In this document: piece after piece, positions 19,447 through 39,777 of the stretch
Numbering within the stretch: position 1 is the stretch's first letter
How the letters are laid out: every line of letters begins with the position of its first letter
NCBI GenBank assembly: GCA_016206785.1
Contig: JACQQV010000048.1
Location: 1,889 to 65,888, forward strand
Direction of reading: 5' to 3'
Origin: Candidatus Omnitrophota bacterium
GTDB taxonomy: Bacteria > Omnitrophota > Gorgyraeia > JACQQV01
Length of the DNA: 64,000 bases
Program-made: the position numbers and the translations under genes
The notes under the pieces: model-generated
Seen by the model: the letters and a program-made list of their open reading frames with translations, nothing else
Told to the model about the DNA's origin: nothing
Databases searched by the model: none

Positions 19447-20355
19447 ATGAGTGTTGATGTGGAGGGGGCAACCCATCTTTATGATGAGGCGACGGCGCTC
19501 ATGAGGAGGATTTTCCAGCAGGCCGAACAGAACGAACCGATTGATGGGAAAGAGATCGCAGAATTGGTTTGGCGCCTCGTAGAGCATATGACGCTGGGGG
19601 ATAAGGGGCTTGTTTATTTCACCAATCGCTCAACACCTCGGAATTACTTCATCGCCCAGTCTGTCAATGTCTGCATTCTTTCCCTTTTGGTCGGCGGGGC
19701 GTTAGGCTATGATACCTCCAAACTGCACGAATTGGGGGTGGCTGCACTTCTCCATGACATTGGGATGGTGAAGGTCCTCAAGATCGCCACCCAGCCGAGG
19801 AAATTGACCCCCGAAGAATTGGAAGAGATCCGGAAACACCCGACGTATGGGGTCCAGATTCTCCAGAAGATCGATCTGTTGCACGAATCGACCCTCTTCG
19901 TCTGCCGGGAGCATCGTCGGAGAAAGTGGGGAAAAGCCCCCGCCTCCCCCAGCGAGAAACTCGCAAGAGAATATGCGCAAATCGTGGGGACCATTGATAT
20001 CTATGTGGCGATGACACAGCCCCGCCCTTACCGGGAAGCCAAACTTTCTCATGAAGCGGTTCGGGAGCTGATCGGTACAGCGCTGGAAATTTTTGATACC
20101 CGCGTCATGAAAACCCTCATTAACCAGATTGGTATTTATCCGATCGGGTCGTGGGTGAAGTTGAACACAGAAGAGATCGCGCGGGTGGTGGGGCAGAACC
20201 AAAATTTTCCCCTCCATCCGATCGTCGAAATCCTTTTTGATCCGAAGGGCCATTTCTTAGAGACCACGAAGACATACGATCTCTTCAAACAACAGATCCT
20301 CTATATTAAAGAACCGGTCGATTATCAGAAATTGCAACTGTCTGGAAAAGAGTGA
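19447..20355 (+). CDS. HD-domain phosphohydrolase, HD-GYP-like but with a degenerate GYP motif
   Basis: The HD core 'ALLHDIGMV' is present. 'EHRRRKWGKA' sits where HHExxDGxGYP is expected. Confidence 0.65.
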   Translation: MSVDVEGATHLYDEATALMRRIFQQAEQNEPIDGKEIAELVWRLVEHMTLGDKGLVYFTNRSTPRNYFIAQSVNVCILSLLVGGALGYDTSKLHELGVAALLHDIGMVKVLKIATQPRKLTPEELEEIRKHPTYGVQILQKIDLLHESTLFVCREHRRRKWGKAPASPSEKLAREYAQIVGTIDIYVAMTQPRPYREAKLSHEAVRELIGTALEIFDTRVMKTLINQIGIYPIGSWVKLNTEEIARVVGQNQNFPLHPIVEILFDPKGHFLETTKTYDLFKQQILYIKEPVDYQKLQLSGKE

Positions 20356-20561: not shown

Positions 20562-20603
20562 GGGCCCCCCGTTTCACTGGACTTCCAGTGAAACGGGGGG
20601 CTC
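20562..20603 (+). promoter_or_regulatory. Very stable hairpin with a 16-19 bp perfect stem (CCCCCCGTTTCACTGG / CCAGTGAAACGGGGGG) and no U-tract; candidate RNA structure or protein-binding palindrome
   Basis: Seen directly in the sequence. It lies about 27 nt upstream of the RBS and ATG of the sensor gene. Confidence 0.5.
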
Positions 20604-20626
20604 TCCTCGAAGAGGTGGGGGGTCCA

Positions 20627-22042
20627 ATGACAAATTTTTTTAAGACACTTTCGCTCACGCCGCAGAAATTGCGCTATAAATTAGGAATCGCTTTCTTTCT
20701 CATGTCACTCATCCCTCTCTTTGTTTGCACCTTTTTTGTTCTTGCCTATATCTACCCCGAAACCCGCTATGATTTTACAATCGGTTCTTCAGCGATGTTC
20801 GTCATTATTGCCATCACCCTTTTTATCACCCTTCTCGGTTTTAGTGTCATCCGACAGATGGTGGATCCTGTCGTGACCATCGCCCGCAAGGCGAAGCAGG
20901 TTGCGGAGGGAAGGACAGACGCCGCCTTTGACATCGTTCGAGAAGATGAGATCGGGGACTTGAGCGATTCTCTCACTAAGATGACCTCGCGGATCAAAGA
21001 GACGATCACCGAGCTCCATGCTTATAGTGAAAAGACAAAAGAGATTAACATTGAGATCCAACAAAAAGTGCTCACCCTTTCGAACCTTCTCCAGATCGGG
21101 AACCTCATTTCTGCTGGGACCCCCTTGGAGGAGGTGATCGGAGCGATCATCGAAAAATTGGGTCAGTTGGAGATGACCGCCTCTTCGTTTATCTACGTTT
21201 TGGAGTCGGAAGGAGTCCTCATACGCAGATGGGTTCAGAACATTGAGCCATCCCTCCTTCCGGAAAGGGTCACTTTTGGGAGCGGACTCTTGGGCAAGGT
21301 GGCGAGCCAAGGAGAAGGATTGATCGTCGATTCCAAGGGAGGGGGTGGGCTGGAGACCAAAGAATTAAGGTACACCCTTCGCCTTAAGAATCTTGCAATC
21401 TTTCCGGTGACGTCCCGTGGCGTGGTGGTGGGACTCTTAGGCGCAGGGAATAATCTGGATCAGTTCTTCTTCCGCGAGGATGATCTTGAAACGATCAGAG
21501 TTTTTGTAAAACAGATTTCGATTGCGGTCGAGAACGATCTCTTGACGAAACGGGCGAAAGAGCTTCAGATGAAAGATGAACTCACAAAGCTTTACAACGA
21601 GAAGTTCACGCGCCAGCGCCTCGAAGAAGAGATCAGGCGGGCGATCCGTTATCAAAGGCCCTGTTCCCTCATCCTTGTCGATATCGATCATTTCCAGATG
21701 GTGAAAACCCAATCGCAACCAGAACTGTTGAAACAAGTGGCCAAGGAGATCGAAAAGCAGATTACAGAGGTGGATCGGGCCGCACGGTTTGACCGGGATC
21801 TTTTCGCCCTGATCATTCCGGAGAGAAACAAGAAAGAAGCGACCCAATTGGCGGAGAGTCTCCGCCGGACGATCGAAGAGCAATATGGCCAAGGAAGAGG
21901 GTTTCAGGGGCAAAAGGTCACCATGAGTGCCGGTGTTTCGGAAAATCCGATTGATGGGTCCACGGCAGAAGCGCTTATTCAAAAAGCGAAAGAGGCGCTC
22001 ACCACAGCAAAATCGCTGGGAAAGAATCGCGTGGTCGCGTAG
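20627..22042 (+). CDS. Membrane-anchored HAMP-GAF protein with a degenerate GGDEF domain (likely non-catalytic)
   Basis: A transmembrane segment, a HAMP domain and a GAF-like region are followed by a GGDEF fold ('LILVDIDHFQMV', 'RFDRDLFALIIPE' instead of RYGGEEF, and 'GKNRVV'). A start at 20588 is an alternative. Confidence 0.7.
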   Translation: MTNFFKTLSLTPQKLRYKLGIAFFLMSLIPLFVCTFFVLAYIYPETRYDFTIGSSAMFVIIAITLFITLLGFSVIRQMVDPVVTIARKAKQVAEGRTDAAFDIVREDEIGDLSDSLTKMTSRIKETITELHAYSEKTKEINIEIQQKVLTLSNLLQIGNLISAGTPLEEVIGAIIEKLGQLEMTASSFIYVLESEGVLIRRWVQNIEPSLLPERVTFGSGLLGKVASQGEGLIVDSKGGGGLETKELRYTLRLKNLAIFPVTSRGVVVGLLGAGNNLDQFFFREDDLETIRVFVKQISIAVENDLLTKRAKELQMKDELTKLYNEKFTRQRLEEEIRRAIRYQRPCSLILVDIDHFQMVKTQSQPELLKQVAKEIEKQITEVDRAARFDRDLFALIIPERNKKEATQLAESLRRTIEEQYGQGRGFQGQKVTMSAGVSENPIDGSTAEALIQKAKEALTTAKSLGKNRVVA

Positions 22043-22073: not shown

Positions 22074-23147
22074 ATGGCTGTTGAGACTCAAATCATTGAT
22101 TATTTGCGGCGGATGGTGACACGGGATGCCTCAGATCTCCACCTCACCGCTGGCTCTCCTCCCCGGGTGCGGGTCGATGAGCAGTTGGTGAACCTGGATG
22201 AGACCCTCCTTTCCGGGGATCGTGTGAAAGAACTCGCTTACAGTATTTTAACCCCTCAACAGGTGGAGCGCTTTGAGAGGGAGAAAGAGCTTGACATGGC
22301 CTTTGGGATAGAAGGCTTAAGCCGTTACCGCGTGAATGTCTTTATGCAGAAAGGGACCGTGGCGGCCGCGATCCGTACCCTCCCGCACAAAATTCGAACC
22401 TTTGAGGAATGCGGCCTGCCGATCACGGTGGTCACAAACCTCTGCAAACAACCGAAGGGATTGGTGTTGGTCACCGGGGCAACGGGAAGCGGGAAATCGA
22501 CCACCTTGGCCTCGATGATCAATAAGATTAACAGTGAACGGAAATGCCATGTCATTACCGTCGAGGACCCGATCGAATACGTCTTTAAAAATGACAAGGC
22601 CTTGATTCAGCAACGGGAGGTCGGGGAAGATACACTCTCTTTTGCCCAATCTCTCCGTCGAATCTTAAGGCAGGACCCGGATGTGATCTTGATCGGAGAG
22701 ATGCGCGATCTTGAGACGATCCGGGCGGCTTTGAACATTGCGGAAACAGGACACCTTGTTTTTGCCACCCTTCATACCTCTGATGCGGTCTCCTCGATCA
22801 ACCGTGTCATTGACGTCTTCCCCTCTTCCCAGCAGCAACAGGTGCGGGTCCAGCTCTCTTTTGTGCTGATGGCGGTTTTGTCTCAGCAACTCATCCCACA
22901 TGCGCAGGGGAAAGGGCGCGTCTTGGCGGCGGAGGTCTTGATTGCCAACCATGCGGTCCGAAGTCTCATCCGGGAGGCCAAAATTCACCAGATCTACTCC
23001 ATCGTCCAGACGGCGAGTCGTGAAGGGATGCGTACGATGAACCAATCCCTTTATGAACTCTACGTCAAGAAGGCGCTCACCCTCGAGAACGCCTTGTCAC
23101 GTACCCTCGAAGTCGAAGAACTCGAAAGACTTATCAGCCGTTCCTAA
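22074..23147 (+). CDS. pilT: Type IV pilus retraction ATPase PilT
   Basis: The Walker A is 'GATGSGKSTT'. The motifs 'VEDPIEYV' and 'ILIGEMRD' were seen. Confidence 0.9.
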   Translation: MAVETQIIDYLRRMVTRDASDLHLTAGSPPRVRVDEQLVNLDETLLSGDRVKELAYSILTPQQVERFEREKELDMAFGIEGLSRYRVNVFMQKGTVAAAIRTLPHKIRTFEECGLPITVVTNLCKQPKGLVLVTGATGSGKSTTLASMINKINSERKCHVITVEDPIEYVFKNDKALIQQREVGEDTLSFAQSLRRILRQDPDVILIGEMRDLETIRAALNIAETGHLVFATLHTSDAVSSINRVIDVFPSSQQQQVRVQLSFVLMAVLSQQLIPHAQGKGRVLAAEVLIANHAVRSLIREAKIHQIYSIVQTASREGMRTMNQSLYELYVKKALTLENALSRTLEVEELERLISRS

Positions 23148-23159
23148 AGGGAGTTTCGT

Positions 23160-23621
23160 GTGAGCGTAAGCAAGCGACTGATTACAAAGCAGCTGGGTGA
23201 ACTTCTGATTGAACGGGGTGTCATCACAAAAGACCAGGTTGAAAAGGCCCTCGCGGTTCAAAAAGAAGAAGGGGGCCTCATTGGTCAAATCCTCGTCAGA
23301 CTCGGCTTTACCACTGAAGAAGAAATCGCCCAGGCGCTCACTGCCCAATTCGGGTTTCCCTACCTTCCTCTCAAAAACTATGAGATTGCGGGTGATGTGA
23401 TCAAGCTTGTTCCTGAGAATGTCGCCCGGCAATATTGTCTGATTCCGGTGGACCGGATCGGGAACGCCCTTACCATCGCGATGTCGAATCCCTTAAATGT
23501 CCAAGCGCAGGAAGATATTGAACTCATTACGAAATGCAAAGTTCAGGTATTCGTTTCAACGATGACCGACATCAACGACGCCATCAACCGTTCTTATGCG
23601 CAGGGAGATAACCCCATCTAA
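23160..23621 (+). CDS. Stand-alone GspE-N/MshEN domain protein (predicted c-di-GMP-binding)
   Basis: The sequence 'LGELLIERGVITKDQVEKALAVQ' and 'CLIPVDRIGNALTIAMSNPLN' matches the MshEN fold. The start is GTG. Confidence 0.7.
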   Translation: MSVSKRLITKQLGELLIERGVITKDQVEKALAVQKEEGGLIGQILVRLGFTTEEEIAQALTAQFGFPYLPLKNYEIAGDVIKLVPENVARQYCLIPVDRIGNALTIAMSNPLNVQAQEDIELITKCKVQVFVSTMTDINDAINRSYAQGDNPI

Positions 23622-23632
23622 CGAGGACGGAG

Positions 23633-25348
23633 ATGCCCCCCTCTCTCAAACAGAAATTAAGTGATTTCCTCATCGAAAAAAAGGTGCTCACCCCCGAGAC
23701 GCTGGAGCAGGCACTGCAAAAGCAAAAGGAGAAGGGGGGGCGTTTAAGCCCTATCCTCATCGAAATGGGGGTTGTTTCTGAAAAGGATCTTGTCGCGCTT
23801 CTCAGCGAAAACTTAGGGATCCCGCCTGTAGACCTTTCCCGTTTTGAAATAGACCCTGCCATGGCCAAAGTGATTTCTCGTGAAATCGCCTACCACTACG
23901 AAATCGTTCCCATTTCAAAAATCGGAGACACCGTGACGATCGCGATTGCCGATCCTTTAAATCTCTTTGCCGCGGAGGAGATCAAGGCGCTGACAGGACT
24001 GGAGATCCGCCCGACGATCGCCACAGAGGTGGACATTCGGGGGGCCCTTCGCAAACTCTACGATCAATCGATGCAGCAAGCCATTGAAGATGTTGTCAAG
24101 CGGATCAAGCAGACGACCAAAGATAAGGTGGAACTGGTTGAAGCAGAGGAAGGGGAGGCCATCGGGTCAGAAGAGCTTCTCCGGTTGACCCAAGGGGCCC
24201 CCGTGGTCCAGGTGACCAATCTGGTCCTTGAAGAGGCCTGCCGCCTGCGTGCCAGCGATATCCTGATCGAGCCGATGCAGGACACCGTTCGGATCCGCTA
24301 TCGCGTGGATGGGATTCTCAAAACAGGCACCGCTCCTCCCCGAACGATGCATGAGGCGGTTGTCTCGCGTATTAAGGTCATGTCGAACATGGATATTGCG
24401 GAGAGGCGTCTTCCTCAGGATGGACGATTTAAGATGAAACTTCAAGAGCGCGAGATCGATTTTCGTGTCTCTACCGTCCCCTCCAGTTTCGGAGAGAAGG
24501 TGGCCCTCCGCGTCTTGGACAAATCACAGGCCCCCTTAAATCTTGATGGTTTAGGATTTGAGGAGAAACCGCTAGAAGACATGAAAAAGGCAAGTCTCCG
24601 TCCCTATGGCATGATCCTTGTCTGCGGGCCGACAGGGAGTGGAAAGACGACCACCCTTTATTCCATCCTCAAGTATGTGGACTCTCCTGAAAAAAATATT
24701 GTGACGGTGGAAGACCCGGTTGAATTTCAACTGGAAGGGATTAACCAGGTGACCGCGCGAACCGACATCGGTCTCACTTATGCCGCGGCGCTCCGCTCCA
24801 TCTTAAGGCAAGACCCCGATATCATCATGGTCGGTGAAATCAGGGACTTCGAAACGGTGGATGTAGGGATCAAGGCGGCCCTGACAGGTCATCTGGTCTT
24901 AAGTACGCTTCATACCACAACCGCCTGCGGGGCGGTCGTGCGGCTTTTAAACATGGGGGTGGAACCTTTTTTGATTACTTCCGCTGTGACGCTGGCTTGT
25001 TCCCAGCGTCTCTTGCGGAAACTTTGTAGTGCCTGCAGAAAACCGTATCGGTTGGATGCAGCATTGGCGGGAAGGTTAGGACTCCCGTTTGATCCCAAGG
25101 AAGAGGTCAAGTTTTATAGGGGTGCAGGATGCTCCCAATGTTTCGGCACAGGATACTCCGGTCGCATGGGGGTCATGGAGACTCTGCCCCTTACCCCTCG
25201 GATTCGAGAATTGGTGTTAAATCGTGCGCGAGAGAGTGAACTCCTTGCCGAGGCGAAGAAAGAGGGGCTCGTCACACTCCGGGAGGATGCCCTGTCCAAG
25301 GCGCGGGAGGGGAAGACCTCTCTTGAGGAAGTGTTTCGGGTGACTTAA
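23633..25348 (+). CDS. PilB/GspE/MshE-type secretion ATPase with N-terminal MshEN domain
   Basis: The N-terminus 'LSDFLIEKKVLTPETLEQALQKQ' is MshEN. The Walker A is 'GPTGSGKTTT'. The tetracysteine motif is 'CSACRK...CSQCFGTGYSGR'. Confidence 0.85.
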   Translation: MPPSLKQKLSDFLIEKKVLTPETLEQALQKQKEKGGRLSPILIEMGVVSEKDLVALLSENLGIPPVDLSRFEIDPAMAKVISREIAYHYEIVPISKIGDTVTIAIADPLNLFAAEEIKALTGLEIRPTIATEVDIRGALRKLYDQSMQQAIEDVVKRIKQTTKDKVELVEAEEGEAIGSEELLRLTQGAPVVQVTNLVLEEACRLRASDILIEPMQDTVRIRYRVDGILKTGTAPPRTMHEAVVSRIKVMSNMDIAERRLPQDGRFKMKLQEREIDFRVSTVPSSFGEKVALRVLDKSQAPLNLDGLGFEEKPLEDMKKASLRPYGMILVCGPTGSGKTTTLYSILKYVDSPEKNIVTVEDPVEFQLEGINQVTARTDIGLTYAAALRSILRQDPDIIMVGEIRDFETVDVGIKAALTGHLVLSTLHTTTACGAVVRLLNMGVEPFLITSAVTLACSQRLLRKLCSACRKPYRLDAALAGRLGLPFDPKEEVKFYRGAGCSQCFGTGYSGRMGVMETLPLTPRIRELVLNRARESELLAEAKKEGLVTLREDALSKAREGKTSLEEVFRVT

Positions 25349-25349
25349 A

Positions 25350-27050
25350 GTGGCTGAAACGTTTCGAGAGCGACTTACGTCGCTCCTTCTTAAAAGCGAT
25401 CTCGTCGATAAAAAGAAATTGGAGCATGCCCTTGCCATTCAGAAGAAAGAGGGGGGGGCGCTGAGCCAGATCCTTGTCCGGGAAGGATGGATTTCCGAGA
25501 AGGAACTCCTTGCCCTTTTGAGCCAGGAACTGGACATTCCCCCCATCGACCTTTCTCGGTTTAAAATTGATCCCGAAATTGCAAAGATGGTTCCGGAACG
25601 GATCGCCCGCCAGTATCACCTCATTCCGATCTCGCGGATCGGCAACACCCTTGTCATCTCCATGGCAGACCCCTTGAATATTTTCGCGATGGATGATTTG
25701 AGAATGCTTACCCATTATCAGATCGATCCTGTCTTGAGCACCGATAAAGATATTCTGGCGGCGATTGACAGGATTTACACGCCGCAAGATCTTAAAATTT
25801 CCCGGATTCTGGAGGGAGCGGAGATCGATGTTTCTACCGACTTGACCGACCAGGAGGAGGTGGATCTTGAGGCGATCGCAAAGAGTCCAGAAAAGGTTCC
25901 GATCGTAGAGATCGTGAATCTCATTTTGATCGAAGCGCTCGACAAACGGGCAAGCGACATTCATCTCGAACCGGGAGAGGACCGCCTGCGCATACGCTAC
26001 CGGATCGACGGAAATCTACTCGATGCCGTTTCTTTGCCCAAGGAAAGCCAACAAGCGATCGCCTCGAGACTCAAGATCATGTGCGGGCTGGACATCACAG
26101 AAAGCCGGCTCCCGCAGGACGGGCGTTTCAGGATCCGTTTCCGGGGGAAGGAGATCGATTTCAGGGTTTCGGTCCTTCCGATCATGTACGGCGGAAAGAT
26201 GGTGCTGCGTATTCTGGATAAATCGGCTTTGCAGTTCGGGCTGGAACATCTCGGTTTCAATGCCGCTCCGCTCGTGAAATTCAAGGAGGCGGTGAAAAAA
26301 CCTTTCGGCATGATCCTCTTGACGGGACCGACAGGATGCGGAAAATCGACCACCCTTTATTCTCTCCTCCAAACGCTGAACGTCCCCGAACGAAACTTAA
26401 CCACCATCGAAGATCCGATTGAATACCAGGTCGAAGGGGTCACGCAGATCCAGGTTCATCCAGACATTGGGCTCACCTTTGCGGGCGGTCTCCGTTCGGT
26501 TCTCCGGCAAACACCCGATGTCATCATGGTGGGAGAGATTCGCGATTTCGAAACGGCCGACATCGCCGTCAAGTCCTCTCTGACCGGGCACCTCATTTTA
26601 AGTACCCTCCATACCAATGACGCTCCGAGTGCCATCACACGTCTGGTAGACATGGGGGTGGAGCCGTATCTCATCGCATCGAGCCTGATCGTCGTCGGTG
26701 CGCAAAGACTCTGCCGCGTGATCTGTACAAACTGCAAGGAGAAAGTGACTCTTGAGAAGTCTCTTCTGGGGAGTATTGGACTGAAGGAACCGAAGCAGAA
26801 TACCTTTTACCAGGGAAAGGGTTGCCGGAAATGCGCCAAGACCGGCTACTTTGGCCGGATGGGGATTTTGGAGGTTCTCGAAGTCGATGACAAAGTGCGG
26901 GAGATGATTTTGAATCGTGCCTCAACGGCCGAGTTGACCGACTATGCGAGGAAACATGGGATGATCACCCTCCACGAGGATGCCTTGAAAAAGTTTGAAA
27001 TGGGATTTACCACCCTTGAGGAAGTCATGCGCGTCACTGTCCAGGAGTAA
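25350..27050 (+). CDS. Second PilB/GspE/MshE-type ATPase with N-terminal MshEN domain (tandem paralog)
   Basis: The N-terminus 'LTSLLLKSDLVDKKKLEHALAIQ' is MshEN. The Walker A is 'GPTGCGKSTT'. The tetracysteine motif is 'CTNCKE...CRKCAKTGYFGR'. The start is GTG. Confidence 0.85.
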   Translation: MAETFRERLTSLLLKSDLVDKKKLEHALAIQKKEGGALSQILVREGWISEKELLALLSQELDIPPIDLSRFKIDPEIAKMVPERIARQYHLIPISRIGNTLVISMADPLNIFAMDDLRMLTHYQIDPVLSTDKDILAAIDRIYTPQDLKISRILEGAEIDVSTDLTDQEEVDLEAIAKSPEKVPIVEIVNLILIEALDKRASDIHLEPGEDRLRIRYRIDGNLLDAVSLPKESQQAIASRLKIMCGLDITESRLPQDGRFRIRFRGKEIDFRVSVLPIMYGGKMVLRILDKSALQFGLEHLGFNAAPLVKFKEAVKKPFGMILLTGPTGCGKSTTLYSLLQTLNVPERNLTTIEDPIEYQVEGVTQIQVHPDIGLTFAGGLRSVLRQTPDVIMVGEIRDFETADIAVKSSLTGHLILSTLHTNDAPSAITRLVDMGVEPYLIASSLIVVGAQRLCRVICTNCKEKVTLEKSLLGSIGLKEPKQNTFYQGKGCRKCAKTGYFGRMGILEVLEVDDKVREMILNRASTAELTDYARKHGMITLHEDALKKFEMGFTTLEEVMRVTVQE

Positions 27051-27053
27051 CCG

Positions 27054-28259
27054 ATGCCCACTTATCGATATACCGCAAAAGATCAGGAAGGTCGCTCGAT
27101 TACAGGAGTCTCGAAGGTTGGGTCCCAGACCCTTCTCATCGATGCGCTCCGGAAAAAGGACCTTGTCATCATCTCCGTTACCCAGGAAAAAGATAAGAAA
27201 AAACAGATCGTCATTAGAGGCGGGATTAGGCTGGATGATATTGTCCTTTTTTCAAGACAACTTGCGACCATGGTCGATAGCGGGATTCCTCTCCTACAAA
27301 GCCTCGATATCCTCACCGAACAGATCGAGAATCCTTCCTTCCGACGGATTATTATGAAAACGCGCAATGACGTAGAGACCGGGAGTTCTCTTTCTGGTGC
27401 CCTCTCCAAGCATGTCCGCGTTTTTTCTCCCTTGTACATCAACATGGTCAAGGCCGGCGAATCGAGTGGAATGCTCGATGATATTTTGGATCGGCTTGCC
27501 ACGTATCTTGAGAAGATGAATGCCCTCCGGCGAAAAGTAAAATCTGCGCTCATCTATCCCGCTGTGGTGGTGACCATGGCGATCCTTATCACCACCTTTT
27601 TGATGCTTAAAGTGATTCCGACCTTTAAGGGAATCTTTGAGACACTGGGAGGGACCCTCCCCCTTCCCACGCGTACCTTGATCGCGGTGAGCGATTTCCT
27701 GAATCGATACTTTCTCTACGGCGTGGGGGTTCTGATCCTTCTTGTGGTGGCCCTTGTTCTGTACACCCGGACCGAAAAGGGAAGACTTAACCGAGACCGT
27801 GTCCTCATGCATCTTCCCATTTTCGGGAAACTGTTTCAGAAGGCGACGGTGGCTCGCTTTTCAAGAACCCTTTCCACCTTGGTTAAAAGTGGTGTTCCGA
27901 TCCTCTCAAGTCTTGAGATCGTGGGAAAAAGCGCCGGCAACAAAGTGATCGAGATGGCGCTGGAGGAAGCCCGTGCTTCGATTCGAGAGGGGGAAAATAT
28001 CGCCGGTCCCCTTTCCAAGAGGGGGGTTTTCCCACCCATGGTCATCCGGATGATCGCGGTCGGGGAGGAGACGGGCGAACTCGAAAAGATGCTTTCCAAG
28101 ATTTCCGATTTTTATGAAGAACAGGTGGAGGCGGCAGTCGCTGGGCTTACCTCCATTATCGAACCTTTGATCATCGGTTTCCTGGGTGTTGTCGTGGGGG
28201 GGATTGTGGTCTCCATGTTTTTACCCATCTTTAAGTTAACGGAACTCATTTCAAAATAA
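27054..28259 (+). CDS. pilC: Type IV pilus/T2SS platform protein PilC/GspF family
   Basis: The two-repeat GspF architecture is present, with 'GIPLLQSLDIL' and 'GVPILSSLEIV'. Confidence 0.9.
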   Translation: MPTYRYTAKDQEGRSITGVSKVGSQTLLIDALRKKDLVIISVTQEKDKKKQIVIRGGIRLDDIVLFSRQLATMVDSGIPLLQSLDILTEQIENPSFRRIIMKTRNDVETGSSLSGALSKHVRVFSPLYINMVKAGESSGMLDDILDRLATYLEKMNALRRKVKSALIYPAVVVTMAILITTFLMLKVIPTFKGIFETLGGTLPLPTRTLIAVSDFLNRYFLYGVGVLILLVVALVLYTRTEKGRLNRDRVLMHLPIFGKLFQKATVARFSRTLSTLVKSGVPILSSLEIVGKSAGNKVIEMALEEARASIREGENIAGPLSKRGVFPPMVIRMIAVGEETGELEKMLSKISDFYEEQVEAAVAGLTSIIEPLIIGFLGVVVGGIVVSMFLPIFKLTELISK

Positions 28260-38178: not shown

Positions 38179-39777
38179 TTGGTGAAAGAAAATTTGGGGG
38201 AATGGCGGAAGGTTCTCTTTTTTGGAATCGTCATCGGTTTGAGTGCATTCACCACCGTCTCGGGTCAAGAGGGAAGGGCCCCCTCGGAGGTTCCTCCCAA
38301 CGGGGGAATAGCCGATGCGGGGATCGTGGAGACAACTCCCGGCAACATTACCATGGATTTCAAAGACGCTGATATCAATAATGTGCTTCGGATTCTTTCC
38401 TACAAAAGTGGCGTCAATATCGTCACAGGAAAGGATGTCCAGGGACTGGTGACGATTCGCTTAACCGACGTCCCGTGGGAAAAGGCGTTGGATGTGATCT
38501 TAAGGACCTACGGCTTCTCCTACGAACGGGAAGGAAACATCATCCGTGTGACCACCGTGGAAGGTCTTGAGAAAGAGGAGCTCGTGACGGAAGTCTTTGT
38601 CTTAAACTATGCAAAGGCCTCTTCCGTGATCGAATCGATTCGGGATATTTTGACGGAGAGGGGAAGGGTCCGTTTTGACGAAAGGACAAACGTCCTCATC
38701 GTGAGCGATATCCCGACCAACATTTATAAGATTAGCCAAGTCGTGAAGCGCCTGGATCAACGCACACCGCAGGTGGCGATTGAAGCCAAGATCGTGGAGA
38801 CGAGCCTCGACAATGATGACAAGCTCGGGATCGACTGGTCGATTCAAGTGGCGGCCAGGGGATCTGCCCGACCGACCACGTTTCCGTTCGAAAAGTTTGG
38901 AAGAAAGAATTTAGGAATACTGAAGCCTGTCGTCGGCACGGCCGATACCACGGCAGCGAATACGACAACGGTGGGAAGCGGAGGTGCCACCACCTCAACC
39001 ACAGCGCTCTCTACCTTTCCTGCGGCCCAGGCATTCCCCTTTGTCACGAAGGATCAATTTACTTTTGGAACACTCGCCTTTGATCAGTTTTCACAGATTT
39101 TGGAGATCTTGAAATCGAGGCGGGACACCCGCATTCTCTCCAATCCGAGGATTACGACGCTTAACAATCAGACGGCCAACATTCTCGTCGGAGAGATCCT
39201 TGCCATACCGATCTTTGAACGGAACGAAAATACCGGCAATGTAGAGATCACAGGCTACACCGAGAAAGACCTCGGGATTAAACTGTCGGTCACCCCTCAC
39301 GTGAATGATGAGGGGATGATCCTGGTCGAGATCAAGCCTGAGATCTCAAGCCTTTTGGGGTTTGACGAACTCACCCCCGAGGTGAGGGCTCCCCGTTTTG
39401 CCACCCGAGAAGCGGAGACGCAGATTCTCGTGAGGGATGGCGACACGATCGCCATCGGGGGGCTTGTCTCGGAGAACAAAACGGATTCTGTGAGGAAGGT
39501 CCCCCTTTTGGGAGATATCCCCGGTTTAGGATATTTTTTCACTTCGAAGACCAATACGAAGGATAGAACCGATCTCCTTTTCTTTGTGACAGTGCATATT
39601 GTCACGGATCGGGATTTCCAGGAAGCGAAGTTGGCCACCGAGAAGATGGGGGAAAGACCGTCCCTCGGTAAGGTCCAACCCCCGACGAAGGAAGAGAAAG
39701 AACAAAGGGTGCAGGAGGGATTTATTGAGGAGCAAAAAGCCCCCTCTCCCGAAGCGCCTCTTCCTGGGACTCCTTAG
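38179..39777 (+). CDS. pilQ: Type IV pilus secretin PilQ
   Basis: The secretin N domain has 'NIVTGKDVQGLVTIRLTDVPWEKALDVIL'. The secretin C domain has 'RILSNPRITTLNNQTANILVG' and 'VPLLGDIPGLGYFF'. Confidence 0.9.
   Translation: MVKENLGEWRKVLFFGIVIGLSAFTTVSGQEGRAPSEVPPNGGIADAGIVETTPGNITMDFKDADINNVLRILSYKSGVNIVTGKDVQGLVTIRLTDVPWEKALDVILRTYGFSYEREGNIIRVTTVEGLEKEELVTEVFVLNYAKASSVIESIRDILTERGRVRFDERTNVLIVSDIPTNIYKISQVVKRLDQRTPQVAIEAKIVETSLDNDDKLGIDWSIQVAARGSARPTTFPFEKFGRKNLGILKPVVGTADTTAANTTTVGSGGATTSTTALSTFPAAQAFPFVTKDQFTFGTLAFDQFSQILEILKSRRDTRILSNPRITTLNNQTANILVGEILAIPIFERNENTGNVEITGYTEKDLGIKLSVTPHVNDEGMILVEIKPEISSLLGFDELTPEVRAPRFATREAETQILVRDGDTIAIGGLVSENKTDSVRKVPLLGDIPGLGYFFTSKTNTKDRTDLLFFVTVHIVTDRDFQEAKLATEKMGERPSLGKVQPPTKEEKEQRVQEGFIEEQKAPSPEAPLPGTP

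Follow-up and report, generated by a model that had tools for sequence, protein, structure and literature searches.

A 64,000-nucleotide (nt) stretch of DNA from a Candidatus Omnitrophota bacterium (contig JACQQV010000048.1, positions 1,889 to 65,888; hereafter the window) harbours a type IVa pilus cluster in which a gene for a free MshEN domain lies between the gene of the retraction ATPase PilT and those of two extension ATPases, PilB1 and PilB2. We refer to this stand-alone MshEN gene and to its product as SA. Judging from its motifs, SA probably binds cyclic di-GMP (c-di-GMP). The reading towards which we lean is that it acts in trans as a c-di-GMP receptor or adaptor for the extension machinery encoded downstream, namely PilB1, PilB2 and the platform protein PilC. 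What appears most informative in this respect, and was missed in an earlier note on this DNA, is a complementary degeneracy between SA and the MshEN domains fused to the two PilB proteins: the nucleotide contacts seem to be preserved in the former and eroded in the latter.

A complete MshEN domain without an ATPase

The SA open reading frame (ORF) codes for 153 residues, and both its MshEN_N motif region and its MshEN_C region score above the cutoffs of curated profile hidden Markov models. Residues 11-63 match NCBIfam NF053729 ('c-di-GMP_motif'; 'cyclic di-GMP-binding domain, MshE-related') with 65.3 bits for a cutoff of 38, and residues 64-150 match Pfam MshEN (PF05157) with 73 bits for a cutoff of 23.1. 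The NCBIfam models for NfrB and EpsG also match SA. No T2SSE ATPase domain (PF00437) was detected in the Pfam search, the protein ending at residue 153. Neither an EAL/GGDEF nor a PilZ receptor fold was found using Pfam, NCBIfam and Foldseek, MshEN being the sole domain detected. The earlier note had described a free 153-residue GspE-N/MshEN domain directly 5' of two MshEN-ATPases, and this description holds: SA is a real gene with one complete MshEN domain, and both PilB proteins encoded after it are full MshEN+T2SSE proteins (Table 1). The product is identical to P0001, listed at NCBI as 'hypothetical protein HY590_07310 [Candidatus Omnitrophica bacterium]' and originating from a Candidatus Omnitrophica metagenome-assembled genome (MAG). 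Some members of the family carry the JGI pipeline label 'type IV pilus assembly protein PilB', which is a mis-annotation because the T2SSE core is missing from SA proteins.

The motif with which MshEN domains bind c-di-GMP consists of two tandem 24-residue units separated by a 5-residue spacer, with the consensus (R/K/L)LGxx(L/V/I)(L/V/I)xxG(L/V/I/F)(L/V/I)xxxxLxxxLxxQ (PMC5013675; PMC11731258). SA fits this layout, with departures at Q11, the first position of motif I, and at T51, in addition to the conservative V27, I41 and I56. The double motif initially proposed for SA was half right. Its first element, LGELLIERGVITKDQVEKALAVQ, corresponds to motif I (residues 11-34), but the second, LIPVDRIGNALTIAMSNPLN, sits in MshEN_C; the real motif II is LIGQILVRLGFTTEEEIAQALTAQ.

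Complementary degeneracy of the free and fused MshEN domains

In Vibrio cholerae MshE (VcMshE), the two guanines are read at their O6/N7 edge by backbone amides, namely those of G11, of G40 and of the residue following each (PMC5013675). Q32 and Q61 contact the ribose-phosphate, and the leucines form hydrophobic clamps (PMC5013675). The G11L mutant shows no detectable c-di-GMP binding, and binding is 72-fold weaker in G40I, 12-fold weaker in Q61A and 9-fold weaker in Q32A (PMC5013675 Suppl. Table 1).

We scanned one genome per GTDB species and collected at least 568 stretches that encode an SA relative, the best 80 of which were examined. These 80 genome loci and 6 metagenome loci, all fetched by similarity to SA, were annotated with a simple, crude ORF caller and phmmer; the window and 82 non-redundant loci were used for the motif census. 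We aligned the N-termini of 83 SA, 73 PilB1 and 67 PilB2 proteins.

All 83 SA proteins have the equivalents of G11, G40, Q32 and Q61, and 79 of them have 10 out of 10 key positions. Systematic departures from the original consensus occur only at the first residue of each motif, with Gln opening motif I in 70/83 loci and Leu opening motif II in 82/83. The first position is known to accept Arg, Lys or Leu (Neissner et al. 2024, PMC11731258). PilF GSPII-B, whose motif II opens with Leu, binds c-di-GMP at 6 nM, and a K167L mutant does so at 2 nM (PMC11731258).

The fused domains show the opposite pattern. In PilB1, the G11 equivalent is found in 2/73 proteins, being replaced elsewhere, among others, by T, I, Q, S, V or M, and the G40 equivalent in 6/73 (Ser in 55); a single protein has both glycines, and the Q61 equivalent is mostly Gly or Glu. 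In PilB2, none of the 67 proteins has the G11 equivalent (Ile in 22, Leu in 12, Thr in 9, Val in 8, Ala in 7, Ser in 5), and hence none has both glycines, with that of G40 present in 39. The Q61 equivalent of PilB2 is Glu in 33 proteins and Gln in 18. As for the window, the PilB1 motifs read KLS.. and RLSP.. with Asn in place of Q61, and those of PilB2 read RLT.. and ALS.. with Glu at this position. As the glycines that read the guanines have disappeared from the MshEN domains still attached to PilB1 and PilB2, nucleotide sensing appears to have been handed over to SA.

The same contrast, with canonical motifs in the free protein and degenerate ones in the PilBs, occurs in a distant subfamily (L087), in a REC-SA-PilB-PilB-PilC context. 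Another protein, P0130, combines in a single 765-residue chain an SA-like, near-canonical MshEN domain whose motif I has RTG rather than xLG, a degenerate MshEN domain and a Walker A-type ATPase region, the latter identified by motif search only.

Predicted fold

The AlphaFold2 model of SA, generated from a 48-sequence alignment, has a mean predicted local distance difference test (pLDDT) score of 88.6 and a predicted template modelling (pTM) score of 0.78. It is composed of helices 3-18, 24-37, 41-47 and 53-64 followed by an alpha-beta unit, which corresponds to the bundle of four helices in MshEN_N and to MshEN_C. Using Foldseek against the PDB, the top match was the N-domain of V. cholerae MshE with c-di-GMP (5HTL), with template modelling (TM) scores of 0.77/0.84, a root-mean-square deviation of 2.1 A over 136 columns and 32% identity. 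It was followed by Thermus PilF GSPII-A and GSPII-B, including c-di-GMP-bound GSPII-B, and by the Xanthomonas citri PilB(N)-PilZ complexes 7LKM/7LKO. The EpsE N1:EpsL complex 2BH1 and 4PHT were further matches. In a PDB sequence search, SA retrieved PilF (3e-45), Geobacter PilB (3e-27) and MshE (6e-19). The structural comparison suggested in the earlier note thus yielded an MshEN fold. By analogy with the matched complexes, MshEN_C is likely to be the protein-docking surface of SA.

Distribution and conservation of the SA family

The organism-level names among the best 80 loci are all Omnitrophota, and one of these loci lies in the complete Ca. Velamenicoccus archaeovorus genome. The members of a subfamily further removed (48% identity) are likewise from Omnitrophota wherever the source names an organism. 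The SA family has thus been seen so far only in this phylum. Twenty of the 80 loci were deposited under third-party (TPA) MAG titles as 'uncultured Planctomycetia/Planctomycetales' (e.g. L012, L018, L020, L025 and L026) and look taxonomically mislabelled; L018 and L005 are the same contig.

Among the 120 best homologues, 114 are 144-157 residues long, with 67-94% identity to the SA protein of the window. To compare the genes of the cluster, all-versus-all identities were computed over the 36 loci that carry every gene. The median is 64.2% for SA, similar to those of PilT (63.7%) and the ATPase cores of PilB1 (62.5%) and PilB2 (66.4%). That of PilC is 59.0%, and the fused MshEN domains have medians of 49.0% (PilB1) and 44.8% (PilB2). 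SA is therefore under purifying selection, and its conservation matches that of PilT and the ATPase cores. Its distances from the N-domains of PilB1 (33% identity), PilB2 (41%) and Geobacter PilB (41%) are about the same, which indicates an old, separately maintained gene rather than a recent copy.

These data bear on the possibility that SA is a functionless, pseudogenised or split-off piece of a third PilB-type ATPase, which had been raised as a ground for dismissing it. SA is indeed homologous to PilB N-termini, and the JGI labels of some members point the same way. Nevertheless, hundreds of intact orthologues of 145-157 residues conserved like PilT, the about equal distance of SA from all PilB N-domains and its intact ORF with a ribosome-binding site make a dead fragment next to inconceivable. 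Furthermore, PilB1 begins 11 nt past the SA stop codon (TAA to ATG), which leaves no room for an ATPase remnant 3' of SA. We also rejected a read-through or frameshift fusion of SA and PilB1, as the reading frames of SA and PilB1 differ in the window and the spacing of the genes is variable (median 3 nt, range -122 to 498, with crude ORF calling). In the loci examined, none of the PilB1 ORFs was an SA-PilB1 fusion, whose product would have about 720 residues. SA may have arisen by an ancient fission from a PilB with two MshEN domains, the product having been kept as a functional gene.

Some SA variants of about 200-220 residues have a (MshEN_N)2-MshEN_C organization, with P0029, P0034, P0039, P0052 and P0100 among the duplicated or tandem cases. 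Both copies keep the two Gly and two Gln contact residues, and at least one such variant, P0039, occupies the slot between the GGDEF and PilB genes. Tandem stand-alone MshEN genes are also found in some relatives, e.g. at 110-559 and 576-1037 of L091. Outside the stand-alone proteins, the closest relatives of SA (45-52% identity) are mostly fusions of MshEN with PilZ (P0161, P0167, P0191, P0192, P0262 and P0263). That these are the nearest fused relatives indicates that SA-like modules have been reused for signalling, not as ATPase N-termini. In P0158, a further one of these relatives, MshEN is fused to a DnaA-type ATPase domain. Many MshEN-only clusters of 145-180 residues are present in the 50%-cluster library, but their number is an upper bound, because several entries of 140-190 residues, such as P0220, are genes cut by contig ends.

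Genetic environment

The features of the window are listed in Table 1.

Table 1. Coordinates of SA, its motifs and the surrounding genes in the window
Feature	Coordinates	Strand	Basis and remarks
HD-GYP-like protein without GYP motif (CREHRRRKWGKAP)	19447..20355	+	Pfam, alignment; upstream of GGDEF gene
HAMP-GAF-GGDEF protein	20588..22042	+	Pfam; always upstream of SA in synteny; active site degenerate (DRDLF)
PilT retraction ATPase	22074..23147	+	TIGR01420, 470 bits; 12 nt 5' of SA
Shine-Dalgarno-like AAGGGAG	23147..23153	+	Direct sequence reading; 6 nt 5' of SA GTG, overlaps pilT stop codon
SA, stand-alone MshEN gene	23160..23621	+	ORF with GTG start, TAA stop, 153 residues; Pfam and NCBIfam matches; AlphaFold2 model; Foldseek
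c-di-GMP motif I, residues 11-34, QLGELLIERGVITKDQVEKALAVQ	23190..23261	+	PMC5013675 definition; G13 = VcMshE G11, Q34 = Q32
Spacer KEEGG, residues 35-39	23262..23276	+	G38 and G39 invariant across SA family
c-di-GMP motif II, residues 40-63, LIGQILVRLGFTTEEEIAQALTAQ	23277..23348	+	G42 = VcMshE G40, Q63 = Q61
MshEN_C / N1E-like alpha-beta subdomain, residues 64-150, contains LIPVDRIGNALTIAMSNPLN	23349..23609	+	PF05157, model secondary structure, structural matches
PilB1 extension ATPase, MshEN+T2SSE	23633..25348	+	Pfam, NCBIfam
PilB2 extension ATPase, MshEN+T2SSE	25350..27050	+	Pfam, NCBIfam
PilC platform protein	27054..28259	+	Pfam, NCBIfam
Polytopic membrane protein with C-terminal TPR repeats	28261-29949	+	Between PilC and pilin genes
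Sigma-70 consensus promoter	30016-30044	+	TTGACA, 17-nt spacer, TATAAT, extended -10 TG
ORF, 495 residues	32490-33977	+	Between minor-pilin-like genes and PilM
ORF, 510 residues	33959-35491	+	Between minor-pilin-like genes and PilM
PilM, GspL-like cytoplasmic platform protein	35473..36588	+	Pfam PilM_2, 181 bits
Secretin	38179-39777		Type IVa pilus cluster, which also holds pilins

The gene order HAMP-GAF-GGDEF, (PilT), SA, PilB1, PilB2, (HD-GYP), PilC, in which the genes in parentheses are optional, is shared by the window and the related loci. The SA-PilB1-PilB2 succession is kept wherever the contig reaches far enough, and about a quarter of the loci, including that of Ca. Velamenicoccus, have no PilT in the block. 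The median gaps among the loci examined are 3 nt between SA and PilB1, 9 nt between PilT and SA and 13 nt between GGDEF and SA. From the GGDEF gene to the gene that follows PilC in the window, no promoter or terminator signals above shuffled expectation were found. The short gaps and the lack of internal signals are consistent with an operon. The order pilT-SA first pointed to SA being an obligate partner of PilT; this idea is weakened by the absence of PilT from part of the blocks in which SA-PilB1-PilB2 is kept.

The conservation of this arrangement also helps evaluate two alternative roles. SA could be a passive c-di-GMP sink or buffer with no specific protein partner, being small, soluble and made of one domain whose high-affinity site is apparently intact. 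However, a sink would require neither a conserved MshEN_C, given that the isolated MshEN_N subdomain binds c-di-GMP as well as the full domain does (PMC5013675), nor a strict location 5' of PilB1 (gaps of about 0-13 nt) across the phylum. We regard it as very improbable.

Alternatively, SA might be a decoy that mimics the N-terminal docking domain of PilB. It would then occupy the PilM or PilC site or cap the PilB ring, and thereby inhibit extension or select between PilB1, PilB2 and PilT, with c-di-GMP toggling its action. MshEN_C is homologous to the GspL-binding N1E domain of GspE and the PilZ-binding N-domain of PilB (2BH1, 4PHT, 7LKM/7LKO), PilM is encoded in the same cluster, and the SA gene sits between those of the retraction and extension ATPases. 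In addition, within the SA family the conservation of MshEN_C (64.7% identity) comes close to that of MshEN_N (68.5%), which fits a constrained interface. PilM is conceivable as a docking partner of the N1E-like domain. A selector role between PilT and PilB is not universal in cis, though, as PilT is out of the block in about a quarter of the loci. Moreover, a decoy is a sub-case of the receptor/adaptor role with the opposite sign, and nothing separates inhibition from activation. Such a decoy function seems to us rather unlikely.

Neighbouring GGDEF and HD-GYP proteins and proposed role

In the GGDEF protein of the window, DRDLF replaces the GG[DE]EF motif and TxxD the RxxD I-site. The orthologues encoded at this place in other loci carry a canonical GGDEF or SGDEF in some lineages and degenerate forms in others, e.g. 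EDGVF in Ca. Velamenicoccus. Since its position is fixed but its active site varies, the GGDEF protein may serve as a scaffold or receptor in some lineages. Loci devoid of PilT harbour a canonical HD-GYP phosphodiesterase (mostly HHERWDGKGYP, with small variations) between PilB2 and PilC, including in Ca. Velamenicoccus. In the lineage of the window, the HD-GYP-like protein without GYP is instead encoded upstream of the GGDEF gene. The inserted HD-GYP gene was found in L032, L027, L047, L048, L065, L066, L070, L078, L083 and L086. Thus, a local module of a diguanylate cyclase and its receptor, although other lineages keep GGDEF/SGDEF and canonical HD-GYP motifs, is unsupported in the window genome, where the former motif reads DRDLF and GYP is missing.

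The earlier note had envisaged SA as a c-di-GMP sink, sensor or adaptor. Sensor and adaptor gain from the synteny with PilB1 and PilB2, from the presence of GGDEF and, in part of the loci, HD-GYP genes in the operon, and from the degenerate motifs of the ATPases, while the sink is disfavoured. In the mechanism that we propose, c-di-GMP would bind to motifs I and II of SA (residues 11-63), and the N-terminal helix and both subdomains would take up new orientations on binding. MshEN_C might thereby dock differently on a component of the motor or platform, which could be the ring of PilB N-domains, PilM or PilC. Docking of SA would in turn gate the engagement or activity of the extension ATPases, be it by activation or by inhibition.

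Several observations weigh against this role. The Gln that opens motif I is outside the assayed set of Arg, Lys and Leu. Both the GGDEF and the HD-GYP-like proteins next to SA are degenerate, so that there is no local source of c-di-GMP in the window genome. The glycines of the PilB proteins of the window are replaced by Ser or Thr, which are milder substitutions than the Leu and Ile mutants assayed in VcMshE, and the PilB1 and PilB2 N-termini still exceed the NF053729 cutoff, with 56.6 and 44.2 bits, respectively. Replacement of Q61 by Glu may also be tolerated, as c-di-GMP-bound structures of PilF Q218E and Q190E exist in the PDB. The selection of loci by similarity to SA may have inflated its apparent conservation, a bias that the all-versus-all comparison lowers, not to zero. 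PilF GSPII-A is near-consensus and yet does not bind c-di-GMP, since its alpha-1 helix, which is elongated and capped, obstructs the site together with contacts between its subdomains (PMC12002112). In the SA model, alpha-1 is drawn as continuous from residue 3 to 18, with pLDDT values below 50 at residues 1-6; binding competence can therefore not be read from the model. Lastly, our literature search found no paper characterizing any member of the SA family.

Some of these points would also fit a subunit that serves the structure or assembly of the PilB1/PilB2 motor independently of c-di-GMP, the motif residues merely holding the four-helix fold. The precedent of GSPII-A, the Gln at the start of motif I and the degenerate neighbours in the window are compatible with such a subunit. 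However, the residues retained in 83/83 SA proteins are the ligand contacts, and the paralogous domains of the PilB proteins keep the fold but have lost exactly these residues. In the variants in which MshEN_N is duplicated, the motif is retained in each copy, and the operon contains a canonical HD-GYP gene in other lineages. A purely structural role is therefore improbable, although more plausible than a sink.

A bolder version of the receptor/adaptor role is that c-di-GMP sensing has been uncoupled from the extension ATPases in Omnitrophota. An exchangeable free MshEN protein would dock on either of the sensor-blind PilBs, or on PilM or PilC, as a nucleotide-dependent motor selector. We consider this version speculative and doubtful. 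If true, it would represent a natural split version of the MshE/PilF architecture, possibly part of the control of host attachment in these ultra-small predatory or parasitic bacteria.

Comparison with known systems

SA shares with VcMshE (5HTL; Wang et al. 2016, PMC5013675) the two-subdomain fold and the tandem 24-residue motifs with a 5-residue spacer, in which all Gly, leucine-type and Gln contact positions are kept. In contrast, VcMshE is fused to a T2SSE ATPase and its two motifs both open with Arg, rather than with Gln and Leu as in SA, whose binding of c-di-GMP is a prediction from sequence. The Thermus thermophilus PilF GSPII-B module (8PDK/8PKZ; PMC11731258) similarly has a motif II that opens with Leu and a motif I that does not open with Arg, with TM scores of about 0.69/0.75 to SA. 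By analogy, PilF resembles the Omnitrophota system in having several MshEN modules, only some of which would bind the nucleotide. Nevertheless, the three modules of PilF are in one ATPase chain, whereas here the module predicted to be binding-competent is separate and the degenerate ones are carried by two ATPase paralogues.

The logic that we propose for SA is close to that of the FimX-PilZ-PilB systems of Xanthomonas citri and Pseudomonas (7LKM/7LKO; PMC8389850, PMC5595344), in which the PilB N-domain is non-binding and the c-di-GMP input comes in trans from a docking receptor. In those systems, however, the receptor is the EAL protein FimX, bridged by PilZ and with a fold unrelated to MshEN, whereas SA is an MshEN paralogue whose interaction is hypothetical. 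SA and the FimX/PilZ regulators are thus analogous in function and do not belong to the same family. Finally, MshEN or MshEN_N is a portable sensor outside ATPases in the Escherichia coli glycosyltransferase NfrB, Bdellovibrio Bd2402, Methylobacillus EpsG and Pseudomonas aeruginosa PA3740 (PMC5013675). There, the sensor is joined to an output domain, which SA lacks, and SA is encoded within a pilus operon.

That MshEN is a portable c-di-GMP sensor is already known, and MshEN-only proteins are common in sequence databases. We found no paper in our literature search on a characterized stand-alone MshEN protein, on the regulation of PilB in Omnitrophota or on the arrangement described here. What is new is the configuration, namely a motif-perfect free MshEN between pilT and two pilB paralogues with degenerate MshEN domains, an arrangement maintained throughout the Omnitrophota loci that we examined.

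In Omnitrophota, type IV pili are believed to have a central part in contact with the host. SA represents a concrete candidate c-di-GMP receptor for this mostly uncultured phylum, including the archaea-associated Ca. Velamenicoccus archaeovorus. Results on the effect of c-di-GMP binding to MshEN on PilB/MshE-type motors are inconsistent between Vibrio, Clostridium and Myxococcus (review PMC11656802). If our reading is correct, a separate 17-kDa sensor and sensor-blind motors would make it possible to vary each of the two on its own in vitro, by mixing, titration or mutation. In the databases, hundreds of entries now called 'hypothetical protein' or, wrongly, 'PilB' could also be re-annotated.

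Other features of the pilus cluster

The PilB1 and PilB2 genes are in tandem, 1 nt apart, and the Walker A and B motifs, the Asp and His boxes and the tetracysteine motifs are intact in both proteins. A 1173-residue 'fusion' of PilB1 and PilB2 in L086 was discarded as an artefact of a masked N-run. No Pfam matches were found for the two ORFs that precede PilM (Table 1).

The polytopic membrane protein with TPR repeats encoded after PilC recurs in many related loci, and its L005 orthologue has a weak PMT_2 match. It may be a pilin glycosyltransferase. Downstream of this gene, the sigma-70 promoter has a perfect consensus and is located about 125 nt 5' of the first pilin gene, which begins at 30169. 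This sequence suggests that the major pilin has its own strong promoter.

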